Of a stretch of 64,000 nt of DNA, positions 10,042-49,898 are shown piece by piece. The translations under genes were made by a program, and so were the position numbers. Each line of letters opens with the position of its first letter. Position 1 is the stretch's first letter. The stretch lies in the NCBI RefSeq assembly GCF_057098645.1, contig NZ_CM169472.1; one strand, 5' to 3'. The notes beneath the pieces were generated by a model. That model saw only the letters and a list, made by a program, of their open reading frames with translations. It had not been told where the DNA came from and did not search any database.

Positions 10042-10601
10042 CCGTTGCCCTCATTATCATTATTCACCACCAGGCGGGGTGGTGGTGGCACCGCAAAACG
10101 GTTAGCCGCTTTTTTCGCCGCGTCACCTTTTGCCGATTTTTTACCGGCATCCCCTTTTTTATGGTGCGTGAACTGCGCCAGCTTATAAGCCGCATCCAGC
10201 GCCAGCCTGGGGTCGGTATTAATGTTCTCCACCAGAAGACGCCCCATCGCTTTCACCGGATCGGGAAGACCATCCTCCATATATTCAATACCAGGAGACA
10301 TCACCGCGGACGGTGGCATCTCCGGATTGTTTTCGTCCGGCTGTGGTATTGCAGCCGCCTCACGGCGACGGGGTTTATCCTCCTGCTCTGATTTTTTCTG
10401 CCGGTAAACAGGAACCTCATCCACCTCCACCGTCTCGCATTGTTTACGGGCTATAAACGCAAGCACCTCCGGATCTTTTGCCAGCTGCGAGCCTTTAACC
10501 CTGGCGGTCTTCGCCGAATAACCAGCGGCAATGGCTGACGCTGTTTTGTTTTTCCCGGACATGAGCGCCAGCGCAAATTTTCGTTTTTGCGTTGTCAGCA
10601 C
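10038..10601 (-). CDS. Terminase small subunit
   Basis: 187-aa protein upstream of and coupled to terL; basic C-terminal half. Confidence 0.7.
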   Translation of the reverse strand: MLTTQKRKFALALMSGKNKTASAIAAGYSAKTARVKGSQLAKDPEVLAFIARKQCETVEVDEVPVYRQKKSEQEDKPRRREAAAIPQPDENNPEMPPSAVMSPGIEYMEDGLPDPVKAMGRLLVENINTDPRLALDAAYKLAQFTHHKKGDAGKKSAKGDAAKKAANRFAVPPPPRLVVNNDNEGNG

Positions 10602-10639
10602 AGCCTCCTCCCGGGTCCAGAACGCACTCAGCCGGGTAT

Positions 10640-10890
10640 GGTTCAGCCCATTTTTCCCGGCGTCTCATGCCGCAAATGTTAACTGCTGCCTGGTTAACAT
10701 TTGCTGAAAAAGCCAGTTAACATTTTTTCCGCACAACAAACTGAATAATAAAGATAAAAACCGCAAAAATGCCCGGACAGCCAGTTAACATGTTAACTGC
10801 CCTGAAACGGGAATTTTTTCTCTGCGTGAGAGGGGGCGCGGTGTCCGGGGCGATCGTTTTTTTCGCCGGATGATCCCCCCCCCGGGGCGG
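10640..10890. promoter_or_regulatory. Putative cos / terminase recognition region
   Basis: Between the HNH and terS genes: repeated GTTAAC-containing inverted repeats (aaatgttaactgctgcctggttaacattt; gccagttaacatgttaactgcc) and a C9/G run. Confidence 0.4.
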
Positions 10891-10891
10891 G

Positions 10892-11257
10892 TCACAGTCC
10901 GATGATATCGTCTGCCCTGCCATGACCTCCGGACACCTCCGGCAGCGTCGGGTCCGGCATACCACTCGCCGTTTCACTGACTGACTTCTGGCGATGGCAT
11001 TCGGTACAGAGCGTCCAGAGATTCGTCTCCTCATTACCACCACCGAACTGAAGTGCAATGCGGTGATCGAGTTCACTGTCACAAAGGTCAACCACACGCC
11101 CACAGAGACAGCACTGTCCGGCATCCCTCAGCCAGATACGACGCTTGAGGGAAACCCGGGCACTGCCACTGACCCGACGCTGTTCACCCTTCAGGACATT
11201 CACCCGCCGGGTATTCAGAGTTTTGATTCTGCTCTGGAGTGTACGAAGCTCAGCCAT
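10892..11257 (-). CDS. HNH endonuclease (terminase-associated)
   Basis: Motifs CCLCGRVVDLCDSELDHRIALQFGGGNEETNLWTLCTECHRQK; sits immediately upstream of terS as in HK97-type cos phages. Confidence 0.8.
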   Translation of the reverse strand: MAELRTLQSRIKTLNTRRVNVLKGEQRRVSGSARVSLKRRIWLRDAGQCCLCGRVVDLCDSELDHRIALQFGGGNEETNLWTLCTECHRQKSVSETASGMPDPTLPEVSGGHGRADDIIGL

Positions 11258-11298
11258 GTAAAATCCCCGTCATATAACTTGTCACCAGAGGAAAGAAA

Positions 11299-11499
11299 AT
11301 GTCATCGAAAAACCGGACCCGCAGAACCACAACCCGCAATATCCGTTTCCCCAATCACATAATTGAACAGATCAACATCGCCCTTGAGCATAAAGGGTCC
11401 GGTAACTTTTCAGCGTGGGTTATTGAAGCCTGCAGGAGAAGGCTGGCAACAGATGCAACGCATCTGCGCCCGGCCAGCATGACAAATAACGAGAAATGA
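11299..11499 (+). CDS. YlcI/YnfO-family small protein
   Basis: 66 aa, MSSKNRTRRTTTRNIRFPNHIIEQINIALEHKGSGNFSAWVIEACRRRL; recalled as a prophage small-protein family. Confidence 0.5.
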   Translation: MSSKNRTRRTTTRNIRFPNHIIEQINIALEHKGSGNFSAWVIEACRRRLATDATHLRPASMTNNEK

Positions 11500-11791
11500 A
11501 CGTTCGGTTTCTTCCACCATCGCACCGGACAGGCGACTATGAGGGGACAACGCCGCGCTCCGTTAACGCGGTAAACCCCGGTGTGTATCGTTTTTGATTA
11601 TCCCCGCACACTCGCGCAGAAGGAATTCCCCGTCGGGCTACGGTCATGGTTAATGCGGAAATACAGCGACGATACAGCGCATGATGTGTCAGGCTTGAAT
11701 ACCTTTATCCGTTAAAAGGGATATCAGTTAAGTTATCCCGTGTAGGGTATAAGCCATTATCAAGCCCACCAGTAGATGGGCTTTGTAATGG

Positions 11792-12049
11792 CTACTTCGC
11801 TTTTGCTTCCGCTCGCTTACGCCGGCGCTCTTCTTTCCTCTCGGCTTTTGCCATGTCCATGAATGCCTGCATGATCGAGTTCCGCATCATGTAGCTAACA
11901 AAGTGATGATTGACACAGCCGTTGAGGCGCAGCTGCTCGCCAAACTCATCCACCGAGGCCAATGCTTCCATCATACCCTTCTCGCCTTTCATGAACTCTG
12001 AGAAGTCGCGCCCCGCTCTGGAGGCGCATTCAATGACACGATCACTCAT
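11792..12049 (-). CDS. Hypothetical protein coupled to the KilA-N gene
   Basis: 85-aa ORF, 4-nt overlap with upstream KilA-N gene; basic C-terminal tail. Confidence 0.4.
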   Translation of the reverse strand: MSDRVIECASRAGRDFSEFMKGEKGMMEALASVDEFGEQLRLNGCVNHHFVSYMMRNSIMQAFMDMAKAERKEERRRKRAEAKAK

Positions 12050-12543
12050 CCCGGAAGTCCGGGGATCGAAATCTGCAACTGGTTAGCCAGGGAGTTAATT
12101 TCAGCGATCAAACCAGGTTTCGTGTAGCGCCATGCCGCGAGGCCTTGTCCACAGAAGCTCGCCATGTCTTTTTTCTGATCAAACTCATGACATTTCATGT
12201 TGAGCTGCGCACTTAAGCTGTTCCGATGATGAAGCTCTCCGGTGAAGTAATCATCGAGGACTTTATAGGCTGCATATTTAAATCCGGGGTTTAGCCATGC
12301 TGCGTAATCATAAGCAACGAACTTTCCGCCATAAGTTCCACCGTGCGCACCGCGTTCCGTAAAAACCACAGATTCGTGGTTTTTCTCCAGCTCAGCCAAG
12401 AACTCTTTGGTCTGCTTGTTTCGCAGGTAGTGGTACGGAGATTCAGATTCACTTTTACCACTGGCTTTCCACATATCAGTGAGGCAGATCATGCCATCTT
12501 CACCGATACGGATTGGTTGATTGAAGAGGGTTAATGATTTCAT
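12046..12543 (-). CDS. KilA-N domain protein (antirepressor-like)
   Basis: 165 aa, N-terminus MKSLTLFNQPIRIGEDGMICLTDMWKASGK typical of KilA-N. Confidence 0.6.
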   Translation of the reverse strand: MKSLTLFNQPIRIGEDGMICLTDMWKASGKSESESPYHYLRNKQTKEFLAELEKNHESVVFTERGAHGGTYGGKFVAYDYAAWLNPGFKYAAYKVLDDYFTGELHHRNSLSAQLNMKCHEFDQKKDMASFCGQGLAAWRYTKPGLIAEINSLANQLQISIPGLPG

Positions 12544-12745
12544 AGCGTGTACCTACTCTTTGAAATGAACCTTTGCCGCACAGGAAACCAGCCCACCGAG
12601 GCTCGCCAGCACTAACTGGTATCCTCAAAGGCCCATTCCAAAGGGGCAGGTTCGGTGTAAAAAACATGCGTTGCGGTACGCATTTATTGCAAAAAGCCCC
12701 GCATCGCGAGGCTCATTAAATGGACTTTGTGATTTGCAAAAAAAA

Positions 12746-13183
12746 TTATTTCAGGCATTGCGTCCTGATGTACTCCTGCAGGTAGTTAACCTGCGCGGTT
12801 ATCTTGTCGATTCCACCTCGGAGACGGTAATAATTGAGTTCAGCATCTGCTGTAAGTCCTGGGCTTTCTCCATCGCCCATGCTGCTGGCTCCGGTCGTTG
12901 ACTTTGCACAGGTGGCGGAGACTTGCAGGCGCTTACGCCCAGCAGAAACATCAGCACGGAGACTTTCGATAGTCGCATTAGCATCAGCAAGCTCCTTTGT
13001 GTATCTGGCGTCAAGTTCTGCTACATCACGTTGCCGCTTCTGCATATCAGCGATGATGGATGTGGCTTTATCGCGCTGCTCTTTGTAGGCGATGGCGTTA
13101 TCACGGTAATGATTAACAGCCCATGAAAGGCAGACGATGAGGCAGATGACCAGAACGTAGATAATCGCGGTTACTCTGCTCAT
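12746..13183 (-). CDS. Rz: Rz i-spanin
   Basis: [40 protein letters not shown]...; ATGA overlap with endolysin stop. Confidence 0.8.
12799..12978 (-). CDS. Rz1: Rz1 o-spanin lipoprotein (embedded in Rz, +1 frame)
   Basis: [34 protein letters not shown]: signal sequence, lipobox Cys, proline-rich; start approximate. Confidence 0.65.
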
Positions 13184-13677
13184 TGTTGCCCCCACAAACA
13201 GACTTCACGCTCAATCTCACGGCGAGTCATCAGCCCTTTCCATTGCTTACCGCCAGCGTATGTCCAGCGCCGTAGCTGATCACATGCGCCTTTGATATCG
13301 CCCTGGTTTATTTTGCGAAGAAGCGTCGATGTTCTGAAATTGCCAGCGCCCACGTTGTAAACGAACGAGTAAAGAGCGCCGCGCGTTGTTTCCGGTATAT
13401 CGATTTTGATGTACGGGTTAATTTGTCTGGCGACCGTGGCAAGGTCTTTATTCAGGAGGGCTTTGCATTCTGCTTCGGTATACGTTTTACCGGGCATGAT
13501 GTCTTTTCCGGTGTGTCCGTGACATACAGTCCATACACCAACAATATCTTTATATGGTATGTAGCTGACACCTTCCAGGCCATCGTCACCACTCGGACCA
13601 GTGATGAGCACAGACGCTATGGCAACAGCCCCACCACCAATAGCAGCAGCAACGGCTTTTCGTAATGATGGAGGCAT
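13180..13677 (-). CDS. R: SAR endolysin (phage 21 R-like lysozyme)
   Basis: 165 aa, N-terminal hydrophobic SAR segment [18 protein letters not shown] followed by lysozyme core. Confidence 0.8.
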
Positions 13678-13883
13678 TATTCACCTCTCGCAGCCTTGCG
13701 CTTATCTTCTTTAATCTTGAAATAAAGGTTTGTCAGATACGTCAGCAGGCCAAACAGCAGACTCCCCAGCACACCTATTGCCACCCACTGGGACGGAGAG
13801 ACTTTGTCCAGCAGCTGCAGTAACCAGTATCCCGTCCCCACCGCTGACGTGGTGTATGACACACCCGTTGTGATTTTTTCCAT
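13677..13883 (-). CDS. S: Pinholin (phage 21 S-like)
   Basis: [68 protein letters not shown]; two TMDs; ATG at 13883. Confidence 0.75.
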
Positions 13884-14175
13884 CTGATGTATGTCTCCGT
13901 CACCGCCGACAGAAAATGAAAGTAAAGGAAAACAAAAAGCCGCCAGTGTCACCCACTGACGGCCAACTCCGGGAGCCGTGATTATGGCATTCAGGCTCTG
14001 CTAAAAATGCCAGATAACATTCCGACCAACCCCTGATTCAGGTTATAAATGACACAATATCTTGACAACATCCGTCACTGTCTGTCAGAAAATGTACTGC
14101 CAAATATAAGTATCATGTGAAGTACATCTACCCGTTTTAGCCAGCGTCCTTCAGAGTGGGCGCTGGCTTTTTTTA

Positions 14176-16026
14176 TTATGCTGCCGGTGCATTTATCTCC
14201 AGCACCAGGCTTTCTATCTCAACGCCATACGCTGCATTTTTTGTAACATCCGTCAGCGTCAGCGCATTCAGCCCCAGTGTCAGACTGTCTTTTATGACCT
14301 GGAATGCCGGGCCAGCCACTCCATTCAGTTTCGGAGTAACCGTGGCACTGCCGGCGGTGAACACCAGCTCCAGCGTCTGCCAGTCGTTACCGTAATCGCC
14401 GAACTCCCCCAGCTTCGTGTTTCCGGCTTTCCTGTGATGCATCAGATTCACTCTGCCGTCAGTGGTCTGAGTAAAGTACGACATCAGGAACGGATTACCG
14501 GTACCCGTCATCGCCACATCATCAGGAACGGGAGCATCCGTATACAGATAAATCCCCAGCCCGAACTGATTGTTGGTCAGTGCGCCTGACAGGCGGAACT
14601 TACAGGTCAGTCTGCCGCCCTGTGTCAGCAGGGTAATTGCGTCATCCACCGGATGCGTCAGGGACCAGGTTTTATTGCTCTGCTTGGTGATCTTAAATAC
14701 ACCACCCGACAACTGAATTCCGCCATCCTTAATGCTCCAGCCCTGCGCAGCAGCCTCTCCGGCTGCCGGCAGCAGGGAGATTGTGCGAACGGACGTATCT
14801 GCAGACGGACCCGATGGCGTGTTGCCGCCGGGCGAGGGTTTGATTTCCGGTGCCTTACCACTGATGAAGGCTGAGGTGCGCCCGGCTGCGTTCAGAATAG
14901 CGGTTGCCAGACGATCCGGAATAATGCTCCTGCGCGCCCATGAACTGAAATGTGTCGGGCGGTTTGATGATACCTGGTTTCCATTCGTTCTCGATGCCGC
15001 ACCGTAATATCCTGATGCCGGAATATCCGGATCTTCTGCCGGCGCGTTAGTGGCGGTATTGACGCCGTTACCGTCTGTCATGAAGGGCACAAAATAAACG
15101 CCCTCACTCTCCCTGTTTTTATACCCGCCGTACACGGTGTCGTACTGGGTAGCGTATGTATTTTTCCAGTAATACGTCGTGTCACCACAAATCCACGGCA
15201 CATCTGCAGCGCTGCCACCATGGCACTGCGCGTTAAACACAGTGAGGTCAGCACGAAACTGCTTCAGCATGGCTGTAAACAGCGCAGGTTGCTGTGCGTG
15301 GGTGGCGGCGCTCATGTCAAACTCTCCCTGCATCCAGCACACCGCCAGCAACACATTTTTCGGGTTCTTCTGTAATGCAGCTTTAGTGCGCGCAATCAGG
15401 TCCTGATATAACGGTTTACCCACACCCCAGCGCGCCGAATCCTGGCTGGCCCCCGCGTCCGCACTGAATGTCCCCTCCGCGCCCTGGGTGAATGCCGAAC
15501 CACCACGACAGCATGGTACCAGCAGGATCCCCGCGTTATTCGGGATATACGGAAGCAGTTTTTTGGCAATATGTAAGCCCTGGCCGACACAGCCGTACTG
15601 CCCTTTGCTCAGGTCTGCCTTCGGATGATTCAGCGTACTCATATCCTGCACATCATGCAGGCAGTGGTCGGCCGGAATAATATCGTTATATCTGCAGGCA
15701 GCCCCGCCCGGCGTCACTGTACTGCGGCGCGCCAGCTGTTTAATGCGCGGATCCGGAGCATCGTATGAATCCGGCAGCGGAAGCCCTTCACCGTAAGCCA
15801 TGGCATTGGACTGCCCGGCCAGTACGATGACGTAGTACCAATCCGGCTCAGTTGCACCACTGACCACCACATCACCTTCTGCTGTAATCGCCTGCATCAG
15901 GGTATAAGGGGTTATGGCCACCGGACTACCAAACGGCTGCCAGCCCTCTTTCAGTTTGTGTGTCAGCTTTTCCGCAAGGTCTGACGGCGACGCCGCCCTG
16001 ACAACATCATAATGTTTAATCGACAT
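14176..16026 (-). CDS. nanS: Prophage 9-O-acetyl-sialic acid esterase (NanS-p-like)
   Basis: 616-aa protein in the conserved position between Q/tRNA and the holin, where Stx-type phages carry nanS-p. Confidence 0.6.
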   Translation of the reverse strand: MSIKHYDVVRAASPSDLAEKLTHKLKEGWQPFGSPVAITPYTLMQAITAEGDVVVSGATEPDWYYVIVLAGQSNAMAYGEGLPLPDSYDAPDPRIKQLARRSTVTPGGAACRYNDIIPADHCLHDVQDMSTLNHPKADLSKGQYGCVGQGLHIAKKLLPYIPNNAGILLVPCCRGGSAFTQGAEGTFSADAGASQDSARWGVGKPLYQDLIARTKAALQKNPKNVLLAVCWMQGEFDMSAATHAQQPALFTAMLKQFRADLTVFNAQCHGGSAADVPWICGDTTYYWKNTYATQYDTVYGGYKNRESEGVYFVPFMTDGNGVNTATNAPAEDPDIPASGYYGAASRTNGNQVSSNRPTHFSSWARRSIIPDRLATAILNAAGRTSAFISGKAPEIKPSPGGNTPSGPSADTSVRTISLLPAAGEAAAQGWSIKDGGIQLSGGVFKITKQSNKTWSLTHPVDDAITLLTQGGRLTCKFRLSGALTNNQFGLGIYLYTDAPVPDDVAMTGTGNPFLMSYFTQTTDGRVNLMHHRKAGNTKLGEFGDYGNDWQTLELVFTAGSATVTPKLNGVAGPAFQVIKDSLTLGLNALTLTDVTKNAAYGVEIESLVLEINAPAA

Positions 16027-16112
16027 CGAATTTCTCCCGTGTACAGGAACAGAGTTAAAAAGCCGGAACCGGAATCAAATCACAGGATGACCATCTGCCA
16101 GTGGCTGGTCGT

Positions 16113-16140
16113 AAAAAAAAGGCCGCGCCATGCGCAGCCG
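16113..16140 (-). terminator. Rho-independent terminator upstream of nanS-p
   Basis: Minus strand reads cggctgcgcatggcgcggcc followed by T8. Confidence 0.5.
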
Positions 16141-16340
16141 GAAATAAAGGGATAACGATGATAGTTTGAGAAAAACAGAAATAACACTTTTGTGGCAAAG
16201 CATGGTGCCGGGTGCCTCCCGGTGAATTCAGTACCAGCACCTGAATCCGCGATTATCCCATATACCTACTCGCTGATTGCCCCTCCGCACAGGGGGATTC
16301 ACCATGCAGTAGTATTTTTAATAAACAGTAAACAAAAAAA

Positions 16341-16508
16341 TCAAGCATTATGCAGGCTGTTTCTTTTTATCACCGGCCACAGCAATACCACAATGCCGCA
16401 GACCAGCACCCCATCCGCCAGCACCGACATGATTCTGCTGGTGAAATCCACCATCACCACCAGAAACAGCAGGAGTGCAGCCACAGCCAGGCGCAGTTTT
16501 ACCGTCAC
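16341..16508 (-). CDS. Possible small membrane protein (GTG start) coupled to the TerB-like gene
   Basis: 55 codons, VTVKLRLAVAALLLFLVVMVDFTSRIMSVLADGVLVCGIVVLLWPVIKRNSLHNA; GTGA overlap with upstream stop. Confidence 0.3.
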   Translation of the reverse strand: MTVKLRLAVAALLLFLVVMVDFTSRIMSVLADGVLVCGIVVLLWPVIKRNSLHNA

Positions 16509-16966
16509 TGGTGATTCTCCAGACGAAGACCCAGAACACCGGCAATCTCTTCCAGCACCTTGCGCTCTTCCGGCTCAATTTCGCCGTCTGCCTCCGCAAT
16601 GGCCACCGCCACATCCAGCACATCTTCCGCTTCACGCGTATCGTGTTTCACATCCTCGATCTCACGTAACGCCGCACGACGACCAATTTTAAAGTTCGTA
16701 TCCAGCTGACCGATAATGGTTGCGCTCATCGCATTAATTTCTGACGTAAACGCGGACAGCGCTGGCTGATTACGCAGTACCTGTTCGATCTTCGCTTTCT
16801 CGGAAGCCTCACATTCACCATCTGCACAGGCCACCAGGTATGCGGCGTTAATCACCGCCTGTGCCAGATCGCGTTTTTCAAACTTTTTAATTTCCGTTGC
16901 CGCTCTGCGGGCTTTTTTTACCAAAAATACCAAACATCGTGACGTTCCTTTGGGTGGGTGAGCCAA
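16505..16966 (-). CDS. TerB-like (tellurite-resistance family) protein
   Basis: 153 aa with two ACADGECEASE / AEADGEIEPEE repeats typical of TerB-like domains; occupies the locus where stxAB sits in Stx phages. Confidence 0.45.
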   Translation of the reverse strand: MAHPPKGTSRCLVFLVKKARRAATEIKKFEKRDLAQAVINAAYLVACADGECEASEKAKIEQVLRNQPALSAFTSEINAMSATIIGQLDTNFKIGRRAALREIEDVKHDTREAEDVLDVAVAIAEADGEIEPEERKVLEEIAGVLGLRLENHQ

Positions 16967-17107
16967 CGCCCGGGAGCGATCTGCCCACAGAGAAAGTCAC
17001 ACTGACCACTCCGTAAGCTCCCCCCCGAAAGGCTCTGTGGTTGGTATGCGCCGGGCGTGGCGCGGATACAAAAAAGGTCCGCAAAAGCGAGCGAGGGAAA
17101 ATAAGTG

Positions 17108-17184
17108 TGGTGCGTTGTACTGGGTTCGAACCAGTGACCGATTGCTTAGAAGGCTGGCGTTCTATCCCGATGAGCTAATGGCGG
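17108..17184 (-). tRNA. tRNA-Arg(UCU)-like, possibly degenerate
   Basis: Good T-arm (ACTGG TTCGAAC CCAGT), ACAACGC-A-CCA 3' end and anticodon loop CTTCTAA, but acceptor and anticodon stems pair poorly. Confidence 0.45.
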
Positions 17185-17185
17185 T

Positions 17186-17261
17186 TGGTGGCCCTTGCTG
17201 GATTTGAACCAGCGACCTGGCGATTATGAGTCGCTCGCTCTCACCACTGAGCTAAAGGGCC
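17186..17261 (-). tRNA. tRNA-Ile(CAU) / tRNA-Met-type (ileZ-like)
   Basis: GGCCCTTTAGCTCAGTGGTGAGAGCGAGCGACTCATAATCGCCAGGTCGCTGGTTCAAATCCAGCAAGGGCCACCA folds as a cloverleaf, anticodon CAT. Confidence 0.7.
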
Positions 17262-17574
17262 TAGCGTAGGATAATAACGTTACGAAATCAATGTTGCAAG
17301 AGTTCACAAATTCACTGATTCAAAATTATTCTTGTAAAAAATCTTTTAACGTCAGGCACAAAGAGCCTGTACATAGATTTGTGTAATTGCCTGATTTTGA
17401 TATGTTCAATCCAGCATCAAATGAAGGTTAATTTATGGACGAAAAACAGTTACAGGCTCTAATGACCTTTATACGATTGACCCAAATAAAAAAAGCCACC
17501 GTTGCAACTTAAGAGTCACTAACGGCAGCTTATGCGAATAGTGTTGCTCATTTGCTCAACGATGTCAACACGTT

Positions 17575-18063
17575 CTATGCTACATGCTTAATTTTCTCTA
17601 CACGTTTCCGGTTTTTAAACGCACTATCCAGAATCGGGTAAATCATAAACAACGAGGCATTGAGGATTTCGTCAACTTCCCGTCGACAGGTTGCTAGCGA
17701 TGGTTTTTGAATGCGCCCGCCGCCCCGGCATAACATCTTGCGAGGTCTTGCGACGCTATGATAGTAAGATGCAATGGCGTGCTTGGAAGAGCCGTGGGCG
17801 TAGTAGCTGAGGAGGATGCCAAAGGCTTTCTTGTCAATGTACATGACGGAATCGACGACCTGAGAAATCAACATTCCATCATCATCATTACACATTGGCC
17901 TTGTCATAACTCTTCCCGGCTCCACGCTCTCCATGAATTTAGCTATTACGCTGCTCATGCGCTTTTCCAGACGACCTGAATAAACCCATGCGCCCCACAG
18001 TTCAAGCCAGCCATTCAGCCACTCATGCTGTTCTTTGGTGAGGTTTAGTTCTCTTATGCCCAC
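17575..18063 (-). CDS. Q: Late-gene antiterminator Q (putative)
   Basis: 162-aa ORF directly upstream of the tRNAs and late genes, after the nin region. Confidence 0.5.
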
Positions 18064-18725
18064 GCGCCTTCTCCCTGTACCTGAATCAATGTGAGATTTC
18101 CGCAGAACACTGCGCCGGTATCGATATACATCTGGTTGGCAAATTTGAGTGGTTTCACTGCTTGCGTATGACCAAAGATGAACGTGTCCGCGCCTTTGAT
18201 TTCTTTCACGATCCCGTCTTGTGAGTTGCTGATTCGTTCGCGGTTCCAGATTACCTGCTGATGATCAACTGGCTTTCCAAACTCGTATTTATCACAAGGA
18301 TAATCGGCGTGGCAGATGACATATTTTTTTCCTTTACTCACCAGTTCGATGATTAACGGAAGTTCATCTGCTTTATGGGCAAGAGCTTTAGCCAGAATTT
18401 CTTTGTCGTAATCGAGATTAAAGAACCAGCCACCGCCATTAAGCAGCCAGTGATTGACGTTTCCACGCTCTGATAAGCCATCAATCATCATTTGCTCATG
18501 GTTTCCACGTACAGCTCTGAACCAGGGGAATGTGATTAATTCCAGGCATTCTACGTTCTCTGTACCGCGATCAACCAAATCGCCCACCGAGATAAGCAGG
18601 TCTTTTTTGGTGTCGAATCCTATCGTCTCCAGTTTTTTCATCAGGTTCGTGTAGCATCCGTGCAGATCGCCAACTACCCAAATATTTCGGTATTTGCTGC
18701 CATCAATTCTTTCGTAGATATTCAT
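18054..18725 (-). CDS. Ser/Thr protein phosphatase (lambda NinI-like)
   Basis: Metallophosphatase motifs GDLHGC, GDLVDRG, GNHE. Confidence 0.8.
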
Positions 18726-19324
18726 GCAACCTCACTTCTGCTGTTTCGCAGTTTTTTAAGTTTCTGTTGATACTCCGCCTTGATGGCCCTGCACTCTTCG
18801 ACAGTCCAGCGATAGCGGTTATGGTTTGATTCGATTTCCTCTACTGCTTCCTGCCCGATGCGGCTAATCAGTTCGACGCGATACGGAACGAGATTTCCGC
18901 TTTTGTGCTGGTTGCACACCACGCATTGCTTGTGAATATTGCGTTCATCAAATCGGAGTTGAGGTGCCGCAGCAGTTGTCCGGTAATGTCCGGCATCCCA
19001 CTGAGCAGACGTGAGCGTTCCGCACGAGATACATGGTAAGTCGCGGTCTCTTTCTCTGATGAAGGCGTTTACGGCTTGTTGGGCTTGTTTAATCCAGTAA
19101 CTGCGGGGCTTTAAGGCGAGTTTTTGAATCTTAAGTTTATCTTTCTGTTTCTGCTCCTCTCGTCGTCGTTTCTTCTCTGCTGCTTTTTCCGCTTTTTCGC
19201 GTTCTTTACTTCGTCGTTCGAGTGCTATCTTGGTTCCACAAATCTCATTACACAAATATTGATTTTGATATTTTGGTATAAACCATTCATTGCAACATTT
19301 ACATTTCCTTCGATAGATTCGCAT
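18722..19324 (-). CDS. ninG: NinG recombination protein
   Basis: [15 protein letters not shown]...[30 protein letters not shown]... collinear with lambda NinG; ATG at 19324. Confidence 0.8.
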
Positions 19325-19865
19325 AAGTGCTCCTTTCGTTGCCGGAAAAATCACCGTAATACTTATCTCGGGCTTCTTCAGCAACTAGTACCGCTAACTC
19401 CAGATCATCAAAGCATCCGAAGTGTTTACTCTTTCCATGGAATCCTAGCCTAACATTCCATTTTTTCTGTCGTTTGTGCCAAGTAACCCCTCTGCAACCT
19501 GATTTGCTATTCTTTCGGATCCTTATATTTCTTGAATTTTCTATTGGCAGGCATTCTCTTAAATTTTCTGGCCTATTGTCGGTCCTAATTCCATTAACGT
19601 GGTCAATTTGACCAGCAGGCCAACGATTATGAGTTATGTAAAAAACTAAGACGTGAGTTTTATATCTACGCCCATCTATCATGATCATTGAATAACCGTT
19701 GGAATCAAAAGTTCCAGCAACACTATTTAATGCTATCCTTCCCTGAGTGGGAACTTTCCATCTAAATACCCCGGTAGATTTATCGAAACTTAGTAACTCA
19801 AATATCCTTTTAACAGTTAAATCTTCTCTTTTACGGTTACATCGTCTTCGCGCTGGTTTAGCCAT
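19299..19865 (-). CDS. HNH homing endonuclease with AP2 domain, carrying the NinG N-terminus
   Basis: Begins MAKPARRRC (as lambda NinG) then HNH motif [16 protein letters not shown] and AP2-like [30 protein letters not shown]. Confidence 0.7.
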
Positions 19866-20059
19866 CGCCTTCTTCCTCCGTAATGGTTTTCTGAATTTGG
19901 CCACCTGAACAGAGCTCACCAAAGCTATGGATGTCGGTATTTCCACAATACCAAGATGGCGAAAATAACTGCATGATAAGCCTCAGGGAAAAGGGAAGAC
20001 ACTACCCCCGATAATTCAGAAACAAATCGAAATACATGAACTAAAGAAAAAATCACAAC

Positions 20060-39735: not shown

Positions 39736-39775
39736 AATAAAAACTTGTAAAATCAGTTAGTTTACCCTTAATCCC
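39736..39775. other. Approximate attR junction
   Basis: Lies between the int stop and the point where mlrA coding homology resumes; exact core cannot be set without attL. Confidence 0.4.
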
Positions 39776-40452
39776 TGTCACGTTACGCGCGTGGCAGAGG
39801 CGTTACGGATTGCTGAAACCGCAACGGACAGACGGCGGTCATCGGCTGTTCAACGATGCCGATATTGACCGGATCCGCGAGATCAAACGCTGGATCGACA
39901 ACGGCGTGCAGGTCAGCAAAGTTAAAATGCTGCTCAGTAATGAAAATGTTGATGTGCAGAACGGCTGGCGCGATCAGCAAGAAACATTACTGACTTACCT
40001 GCAAAGCGGCAATCTACATAGCCTGCGAACGTGGATCAAAGAGCGCGGTCAGGATTACCCCGCCCAGACACTCACCACACATCTGTTTATTCCTCTGCGC
40101 CGACGGCTTCAGTGCCAACAACCGACTCTCCAGGCGCTGCTGGCGATCCTCGACGGCGTACTGATCAACTACATCGCCATTTGTCTGGCTTCGGCACGTA
40201 AAAAACAGGGTAAAGATGCGCTGGTGGTTGGCTGGAATATTCAGGATACCACCCGTCTGTGGCTGGAGGGCTGGATTGCCAGTCAACAAGGATGGCGCAT
40301 TGATGTCCTCGCCCACTCGCTCAATCAACTACGCCCTGAACTATTCGAAGGCCGTACATTGCTGGTGCGGTGAAAATCGAACCTCCGCCCAACAGCAGCA
40401 ACTCACCAGTTGGCAAGAACAAGGCCATGATATTTTCCCACTCGGCATTTAA
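39771..40452 (+). pseudogene. mlrA: mlrA (yehV), 5'-truncated by prophage insertion, apparent frame break near 40370
   Basis: Translation IPVTLRAWQRRYGLLKPQRTDGGHRLFNDADIDRIREIKRW... lacks the first ~15 codons; C-terminal CGENRTSAQQQQLTSWQEQGHDIFPLGI is in another frame. Confidence 0.75.
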
Positions 40453-49725: not shown

Positions 49726-49898
49726 GATGAGCATTCAGATAGTGGTTCACGCGCACGGGTTGCGCACCGCCGGAGTAAGGATTTACTGAGGCTAGCGACG
49801 CCATCATAACGAGCAAAAAGTGCGATCGTCAAAGGAGAATCGTGAGGAAATGCTGCATTGCTGACATTTACGCCAGCAATGCAACGTCAAAGAACTTT

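Follow-up and report, generated by a model that had tools for sequence, protein, structure and literature searches.

The window analysed here is a 64,000-nucleotide stretch of contig NZ_CM169472.1 (RefSeq assembly GCF_057098645.1), in which a short tRNA cluster lies on the minus strand of a prophage. Upstream of the cluster is a gene for a Q-family antiterminator of 162 aa (17575-18063, minus strand), found as an open reading frame (ORF) and labelled by PGAP as an 'antiterminator Q family protein'. The first gene of the cluster is an ileZ-type tRNA gene with anticodon CAT (17186-17261, minus strand), which is called by ARAGORN, scores 72.5 bits against Rfam, and is annotated by PGAP as tRNA-Ile; the PGAP labels near the cluster (ileZ and Q) come from a genome that is 100% identical over the 501-nt query 16900-17400. 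An antisense Plastid-ycf2 match on ileZ, obtained in a permissive Rfam scan, was rejected. A single nucleotide, A (17185, minus strand), separates ileZ from a 77-nt tRNA-like element (17108-17184, minus strand). The first protein gene past the cluster, a TerB-family gene (16505-16933, minus strand; PGAP annotation and ORF), fills the slot of stx in Stx phages, and an Stx2 prophage of E. coli JNE120393 has stxA2 at the equivalent position. Beyond the TerB gene are a DUF3927 gene, an STnc100 sRNA, and genes for an esterase, holin, lysozyme, Rz, and terminase. The 77-nt element thus sits directly downstream of ileZ, between Q and the late/lysis genes, where a member of this cluster is expected.

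A candidate sigma-70-like promoter (TTGCAA-17-TATTAT; 17271-17299, minus strand) ends approximately 10 nt upstream of ileZ. It is recognised by consensus alone, and a scan that found three promoter-like sites against 1.9 expected makes it a weak candidate when taken alone; every upstream haplotype has a TATTAT or TATCAT hexamer in this place. Downstream of the cluster, we read a weak terminator-like imperfect hairpin from the sequence (GCTCGC-TTTT-GCGGAC, followed by C and T6; 17070-17092, minus strand). A terminator scan called nothing after the cluster, and this hairpin, which contains a mismatch, is absent from the minimum free energy (MFE) fold. At the corresponding place, one related E. 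coli locus (L007, 2580-2599) carries an allele with a perfect 8-bp hairpin and a U-run (-12.1 kcal/mol, z = -3.2).

Several other features of the window were recorded. The STnc100 sRNA is a full-length match (101 bits; 16167-16333, minus strand) between the DUF3927 and esterase genes, in the late-operon leader; in L007, its homologue comes straight after the tRNA cluster. The start of the TerB gene is ambiguous (16887-16966, minus strand): an ATG frame (MFGIFGKK...) that crosses an A7 tract is closed by a stop after 16 codons, and the long TerB ORF lies in a separate frame with starts of TTG or similar only. In O157, the homologue contains an internal stop and is labelled a pseudogene. Frameshifting or slippage may take place here, or the gene may be decaying. 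In the early/immunity region of the prophage sits an IS3-family insertion sequence, with an ALIL pseudoknot (120.9 bits; 30626-30742, minus strand), the frameshift signal of that family, and ORFs at 29810-30697 and 30697-31023 (minus strand). A lambda cIII thermoregulator element (88.5 bits; 33402-33460, plus strand) confirms a lambda-like early-left operon. The prophage is mosaic relative to that of E. coli Z1322HEC0003: identity reaches 99.7% only at 13714-24740, and on either side of this segment (1-13700 and 24740-40000) it is approximately 94% in the head genes, with no close match for the greater part of the early region; the Z1322HEC0003 annotation was applied only to 13714-24740. A Peptidase-S11 RNA leader (49730-49810, minus strand) and an naRNA4/REP element (61459-61536, minus strand), together with low rare-codon use, suggest that the window beyond approximately 45 kb is ordinary E. 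coli chromosome.

The 77-nt element runs from its 5' end at 17184 to its 3' end at 17108 and reads CCGCCATTAGCTCATCGGGATAGAACGCCAGCCTTCTAAGCAATCGGTCACTGGTTCGAACCCAGTACAACGCACCA. The first-pass annotation had called a tRNA-Arg(UCU)-like gene at exactly these coordinates, leaving the strand, which is minus, unstated, and its description of the element was accurate: a canonical T-arm, CCA end, and anticodon loop combined with mismatched acceptor and anticodon stems. The anticodon loop has 7 nt (CTTCTAA, anticodon TCT), with T33 and a purine at position 37; the T stem has all five pairs, and its loop, TTCGAAC, fits the 7-nt TTCRANY type; and the 3' end is ACCA, which provides a discriminator A followed by an encoded CCA. 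The D loop, ATCGGGATA, contains the GG corresponding to G18 G19, and the D stem has three of four pairs. Counted explicitly in the cloverleaf register, standard pairs number three of seven in the acceptor stem (CC CG GC CA CA AC TA) and two of five in the anticodon stem (CT CA AA GC CG).

As a tRNA, the element failed by model score and with the gene finders. It was absent from an Rfam scan of the whole window at gathering thresholds; in a permissive cmscan of both strands of 16900-17400, it aligned end to end with the tRNA model RF00005 at 19.7 bits, below the 29-bit gathering threshold (E = 0.18 in the 501-nt search). On the same model, the two genes identified below as its parents, argO and argN, score 63.3 and 44.4 bits, respectively. 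ARAGORN, which had been proposed as a check, reported the neighbouring tRNA(CAT) as the sole tRNA of the whole window, and it does call both argN and argO at the corresponding locus of E. coli O157:H7 PV15-279. PGAP places no annotation at the position of the element in any genome examined. The energy of the element held in the cloverleaf is -1.2 kcal/mol, compared with -24.9 kcal/mol for argN and -18.6 or -21.4 kcal/mol for argO, depending on the allele. Different boundaries that might restore pairing and bring a high covariance-model score, a possibility raised with the original call, did not emerge, as the permissive cmscan yielded only the 19.7-bit alignment. An alternative stable fold was likewise rejected: the free MFE is -11.3 kcal/mol against a shuffle mean of -14.0 kcal/mol (z = +0.96), and 166 of 200 shuffles were at least as stable. 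Matches to other RNA families in the permissive scan (Six3os1_3, YrlA, and mir-5729) were at chance level and were dismissed, as was a protein-coding origin, the overlapping ORFs being only 45-65 aa long and unsupported.

BLAST searches of complete E. coli genomes and phage records placed this segment in a cluster of lambdoid/Stx phages that is annotated either as ileZ-argN-argO or as a tRNA-Ile and two tRNA-Arg genes; the names ileZ, argN, and argO are those annotated in Stx2a phage records. In genomes identical to the window, 'tRNA-Ile' is the only annotation there, whereas in relatives with approximately 95% identity the match is split in two and a pair of tRNA-Arg genes is present. In the O157:H7 PV15-279 locus (L001), the cluster consists of ileZ (3382-3457), a tRNA-Arg(TCG) gene (3298-3374), and a tRNA-Arg(TCT) gene (3208-3284), and its alignment with the window shows one clean 90-nt gap across the 3' part of argN, the spacer, and the 5' part of argO. 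Otherwise, the two differ by a 6-nt indel between ileZ and argN and by substitutions at one site in ileZ and three just upstream of it. The window cluster therefore has, in place of two separate intact Arg tRNA genes, one fused gene from which 90 nt are missing, and this length equals the repeat period of the cluster, a 77-nt gene plus a 13-nt spacer.

The parentage of the fused gene can be read position by position. Its first 30 nucleotides (17155-17184, minus strand) match argN 1-30 of both O157:H7 PV15-279 (L001, 3298-3374) and E. coli EC12 (L015, 2534-2610) with 100% identity and contribute the complete D arm together with the 5' strands of the acceptor and anticodon stems. Nucleotides 31-36 (17149-17154, minus strand) are GCCTTC, a microhomology common to argN and argO in register, within which the breakpoint lies; it takes in the last bases of the 5' strand of the anticodon stem and the first bases of the anticodon loop. 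Nucleotides 37-77 (17108-17148, minus strand) are 100% identical to argO 37-77 and span the third anticodon base T, the 3' strand of the anticodon stem, the variable loop, the T arm, the 3' acceptor strand, the discriminator A, and CCA. In a three-way alignment, positions 1-36 match argN and positions 31-77 match argO, with zero substitutions relative to either parent; non-identity of either half to argN or argO was tested for and none was seen. The two parents themselves differ at 35 of 77 positions and share in-register identical runs at TTAGCTCA (7-14), GCCTTC (31-36), AAGC (38-41), and GGTTCGA (53-59). We could reproduce the element exactly by joining EC12 argN[1..k] to argO[k+1..77] in silico for k = 30-36, and removal of 90 nt from the EC12 ileZ-argN-argO cluster gives the window sequence exactly. 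EC12 and the window are identical in ileZ and in the first 69 nt downstream of the hybrid, and differ further on by two substitutions and a 1-nt indel. A junction-specific probe can be based on the antisense stretch 5'-...GAACGCCAGCCTTCTAAGCAAT-3'.

A tRNA match of this quality is not significant on its own; yet the 100% identity of each half to a genuine tRNA-Arg gene makes tRNA descent certain. The parents are adjacent and in the required order in EC12 and O157, the breakpoint falls in a stretch that they share, and the deletion amounts to one repeat period, as a hybrid pseudogene should show; the exact 77-nt hybrid beside separate argN and argO genes was looked for in intact relatives and none was seen. 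Judged by these identities, the origin of the element is a one-step argN/argO fusion without accumulated point mutations. The suggestion of a decaying tRNA was thus right in that the element is a tRNA-derived relic that fails the definition of a tRNA, but gradual decay does not describe it, since it arose by a one-step 90-nt fusion and carries zero substitutions. In an ancestor whose Q antiterminator and late genes were separated by ileZ, argN (UCG), and argO (UCU), one deletion of 90 nt with its ends in GCCTTC would have removed one repeat unit and joined argN 1-30 to argO 37-77, probably through replication slippage or through unequal recombination between tandem similar genes. We also observed that intact argN (L001, 3298-3374; L015, 2534-2610) is itself an atypical tRNA gene, with its score of 44.4 bits, a C.A mismatch in the D stem, and a discriminator T (TCCA) where a purine is usual.

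The fusion accounts for which parts of the cloverleaf survive. The D arm (10-26) comes entirely from argN and the T arm (50-66) entirely from argO, and both arms are therefore intact, apart from the one C.A mismatch in the D stem that is also present in argN. The breakpoint is located where the 5' strand of the anticodon stem ends. The acceptor stem (1-7/67-73) and the anticodon stem (28-32/40-44) are mismatched because each receives one strand from each parent and the parents differ at 35 of 77 positions: argN has seven of seven acceptor pairs and argO six or seven of seven, depending on the allele, compared with three in the hybrid, and the five anticodon-stem pairs of both parents are reduced to two. 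The anticodon of the hybrid is UCU because the breakpoint lies 5' of the third anticodon base. Perfect single-parent arms combined with broken junction-spanning stems are a diagnostic pattern by which fusion pseudogenes can be distinguished from tRNAs that are decaying slowly or are genuinely unusual. The case matters little for biology at large, but it explains precisely why a tRNA-like sequence can look half right.

To determine how common this allele is, we used a 46-nt junction query designed so that neither parent gives a 28-nt seed. It was found in 21 of 5,426 complete E. coli genomes, as a single, 100% identical copy in each, and no annotated feature covers it in any of them; approximately 0.4% of complete E. 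coli genomes therefore carry this unannotated argN/argO relic. An exact 35-mer over the junction is also present in seven IMG/VR viral contigs. The 90 nt lost in the deletion, a marker of the intact pair, occur in 2,155 of the genomes at 5,231 places. Tandem, partly similar parents are the setting in which an assembly or sequencing artefact, such as a collapsed tandem repeat, might be suspected, but the identical runs of argN and argO are only 6-8 nt long, far too short for an assembler to collapse, and the same junction is found in the 21 complete genomes, from different laboratories and countries, as well as in the seven viral contigs. We regard an artefact as practically out of the question.

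The GCCTTC junction is not the only one of its kind. E. coli JNE120393 (NZ_AP027246.1) carries a second, also unannotated hybrid (L018, 609-685) directly upstream of stxA2, in which argN 1-6 is joined in register to argO 7-77; the break falls within TTAGCTCA (7-14), an 8-nt run common to both genes. Against the tRNA model, this hybrid scores 48.9 bits locally, over positions 7-64, which cover all but the acceptor stem. The two hybrids have the same parents, follow the same 90-nt in-register logic, and are both unannotated; with the breakpoint at TTAGCTCA, however, only the acceptor stem is broken, whereas the window hybrid has lost both the acceptor and the anticodon stems. The TTAGCTCA-class junction was found in one of the 5,426 genomes. 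Judged by its breakpoint, this second hybrid is independent of the GCCTTC hybrid, and in-register argN/argO fusion is a general process. A hybrid with its junction at GGTTCGA gave no match in the 5,426 genomes, and neither did the reciprocal argO-to-argN junction at GCCTTC, the expected triplication product of unequal crossing-over; each of these queries, including that for the TTAGCTCA class, was based on a single allele, which divergent alleles could escape. Like the window prophage, the Stx2 prophage of JNE120393 is without both intact Arg tRNAs. In E. coli Ecol_AZ155 (NZ_CP019005.1; L017, 280-617), ileZ and argN are annotated and argO is not, with approximately 59 nt between argN and the DUF3927 gene; judging from this annotation spacing, argO is probably truncated there.

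We then considered whether the hybrid of the window arose once or several times. The block made up of ileZ, the single A, and the hybrid is identical in seven E. coli loci, the seven IMG/VR contigs, and the window, the sole exception being L007, which has a different argO 3' allele (discriminator A74G) and different downstream sequence. The flanks of the block vary, with at least three upstream haplotypes, which start within 30 nt of ileZ, and three downstream haplotypes; the gene contexts vary as well, in the antiterminator gene, in the presence of a DNA methyltransferase gene upstream, and in the presence of the TerB gene downstream. The 1-nt spacer is a marker of a rare haplotype. It is found in all hybrid loci examined, whereas the commoner haplotype of intact clusters has TCACATA; among full-length matches to intact clusters (approximately 1,927 genomes at >= 80% query coverage), the 1-nt spacer occurs only in EC12, which combines it with intact argN and argO.

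A recurrent deletion at GCCTTC, by which the same hybrid would have arisen several times independently, could explain why the Q and downstream genes vary among the gene contexts of the block, of which there are at least four, and why L007 differs in its argO-type 3' end and downstream sequence, and the separate in-register deletion of the TTAGCTCA class shows that such events repeat. Nevertheless, we find recurrence rather unlikely. All copies share one ileZ allele and the 1-nt spacer, although recurrent deletion would mostly strike the common 7-nt-spacer haplotype, on which none was seen. Lambdoid prophages exchange modules, which accounts for the varied flanks. A single origin is favoured because the 1-nt spacer is universal among hybrids and present in one genome among intact clusters; the hybrid most likely originated once, on this rare haplotype, and later spread among lambdoid prophages through mosaic recombination. 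The argO 3' allele of L007 could reflect later recombination or a second event. The otherwise invariant block of ileZ, A, and hybrid is a handy marker for module exchange among lambdoid prophages.

The codon usage of the window bears on what the cluster was for. Per 1000 codons, the prophage ORFs contain 5-15 AGA, 6-7 AGG, 6-9 CGA, and 7-18 AUA, compared with 0.6, 0.6, 2.1, and 2.3, respectively, in the chromosomal ORFs. Given this richness in rare codons, the ancestral ileZ-argN-argO trio plausibly served rare-codon decoding for phage genes. The earlier idea of a supply of rare-codon decoders fits this ancestral cluster, the prophage being rich in AGA and AUA relative to the chromosome, but it is not supported for the hybrid itself.

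The first-pass annotation had also offered the reading that the element is an unusual yet functional tRNA-Arg(UCU), decoding AGA/AGG in prophage genes despite its weak stems. Apart from the abundance of these two codons in the prophage ORFs, this reading can appeal to the intact anticodon loop (CUUCUAA), T arm, D arm, and encoded CCA, and to A20, C35, U36, and A73, which we take to be the identity positions for ArgRS and which are all present in the hybrid. Moreover, tRNAs occasionally function despite several mismatches, and the allele is unchanged in 21 genomes and seven viral contigs. However, no copy shows a compensatory change, and the mismatches are fully explained by the fusion of two different genes. 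A score of 19.7 bits against a threshold of 29, three of seven acceptor and two of five anticodon-stem pairs, a cloverleaf energy of -1.2 kcal/mol, and the lack of a call from ARAGORN or PGAP all speak against a working tRNA, as does the rarity of the allele beside the intact pair (21 versus approximately 2,155 genomes). We consider such a function very improbable. Going by the predicted structure, the hybrid is most likely non-functional.

Consistent with this, the following course can be proposed for its transcript. The hybrid is probably co-transcribed with ileZ, which lies 1 nt upstream. Since it forms no stable cloverleaf, it is most likely neither processed, charged, nor used in translation; its RNA would be a 3' trailer of ileZ that offers RNase P no good site and would be trimmed away by other nucleases and then degraded. 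The prophage would then keep its own AUA decoder, ileZ, but, with both Arg tRNAs lost, would need host tRNAs for AGA/AGG and CGA/CGG. More generally, prophages with such alleles have lost one or both of their rare-codon Arg tRNAs, and the loss could modestly affect the expression of late genes, and of the toxin in Stx phages, insofar as it depends on AGA/AGG/CGA decoding.

A role outside translation might also be imagined, in which the hybrid RNA, co-transcribed with ileZ, acts as a decoy or sensor for a tRNA-Arg anticodon-loop nuclease, or as an element that modulates the processing, stability, or maturation of the ileZ transcript, and is kept by selection. Phage-encoded tRNAs counter tRNA-cleaving defence systems (PMC11464382, PMC12445682), and the hybrid does retain its anticodon loop and T arm; a decoy, however, should keep the anticodon stem that presents the loop, which here has two of five pairs, and the intact parents, roughly 100 times commoner, are better suited to the task. 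The fold of the hybrid is no more stable than random. The block of ileZ, A, and hybrid is invariant across contexts, and its persistence in 21 genomes and at least four contexts could be explained by selection as well as by neutral hitch-hiking with ileZ; but identical copies offer no variation from which constraint could be inferred, and they fit a recent origin. We give this possibility even less credence than a functional tRNA and regard it as extremely doubtful. Collectively, these results make it highly probable that the element is an argN/argO deletion-fusion pseudogene, most likely non-functional and most likely of a single origin followed by mosaic spread.

In the searchable literature, we found no description of this argN/argO fusion allele, which RefSeq annotation also omits, and no text that names ileZ, argN, and argO together; the original descriptions of these genes are probably in subscription journals. 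A literature search for natural hybrid or chimeric tRNA genes in prophages found none, and a paper on P2-OLD offered no more than general background. The nearest known system is the Met(Ile)-Arg-Arg tRNA triplet that lies between q and stx in Stx2a/c/d phages (PMC7366253, PMC7946995). The window cluster agrees with the ileZ-argN-argO cluster of Stx and other lambdoid phages in locus, order, strand, and ileZ, and the halves of the hybrid are 100% identical to argN and argO; unlike that cluster, it has one fused Arg gene that fails the tRNA tests, and a TerB-family gene instead of stxAB.

As an event, the fusion resembles the classical recombinants between the tandem tRNA-Tyr genes tyrT and tyrV of E. 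coli, which are near-identical duplicates with functional recombination products. Both are in-register deletions that remove one unit between neighbouring tRNA genes and break within sequence common to the two; unlike tyrT and tyrV, argN and argO have 35 differences in 77 positions, and the stems formed from both in the recombinant are mismatched. Prophage attachment sites provide another comparison, since site-specific integration at att sites leaves tRNA pseudogenes that are truncated 3' duplicates of tRNA genes. Like these, the hybrid is tRNA-derived, appears to be non-functional, lies in or near a prophage, and is of the kind that annotation pipelines skip or flag. It differs from them in being full-length, internal to the prophage, and born of a deletion between two phage genes. 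The element is thus best filed as a hybrid tRNA pseudogene formed by deletion between tandem paralogues, a known type of event.
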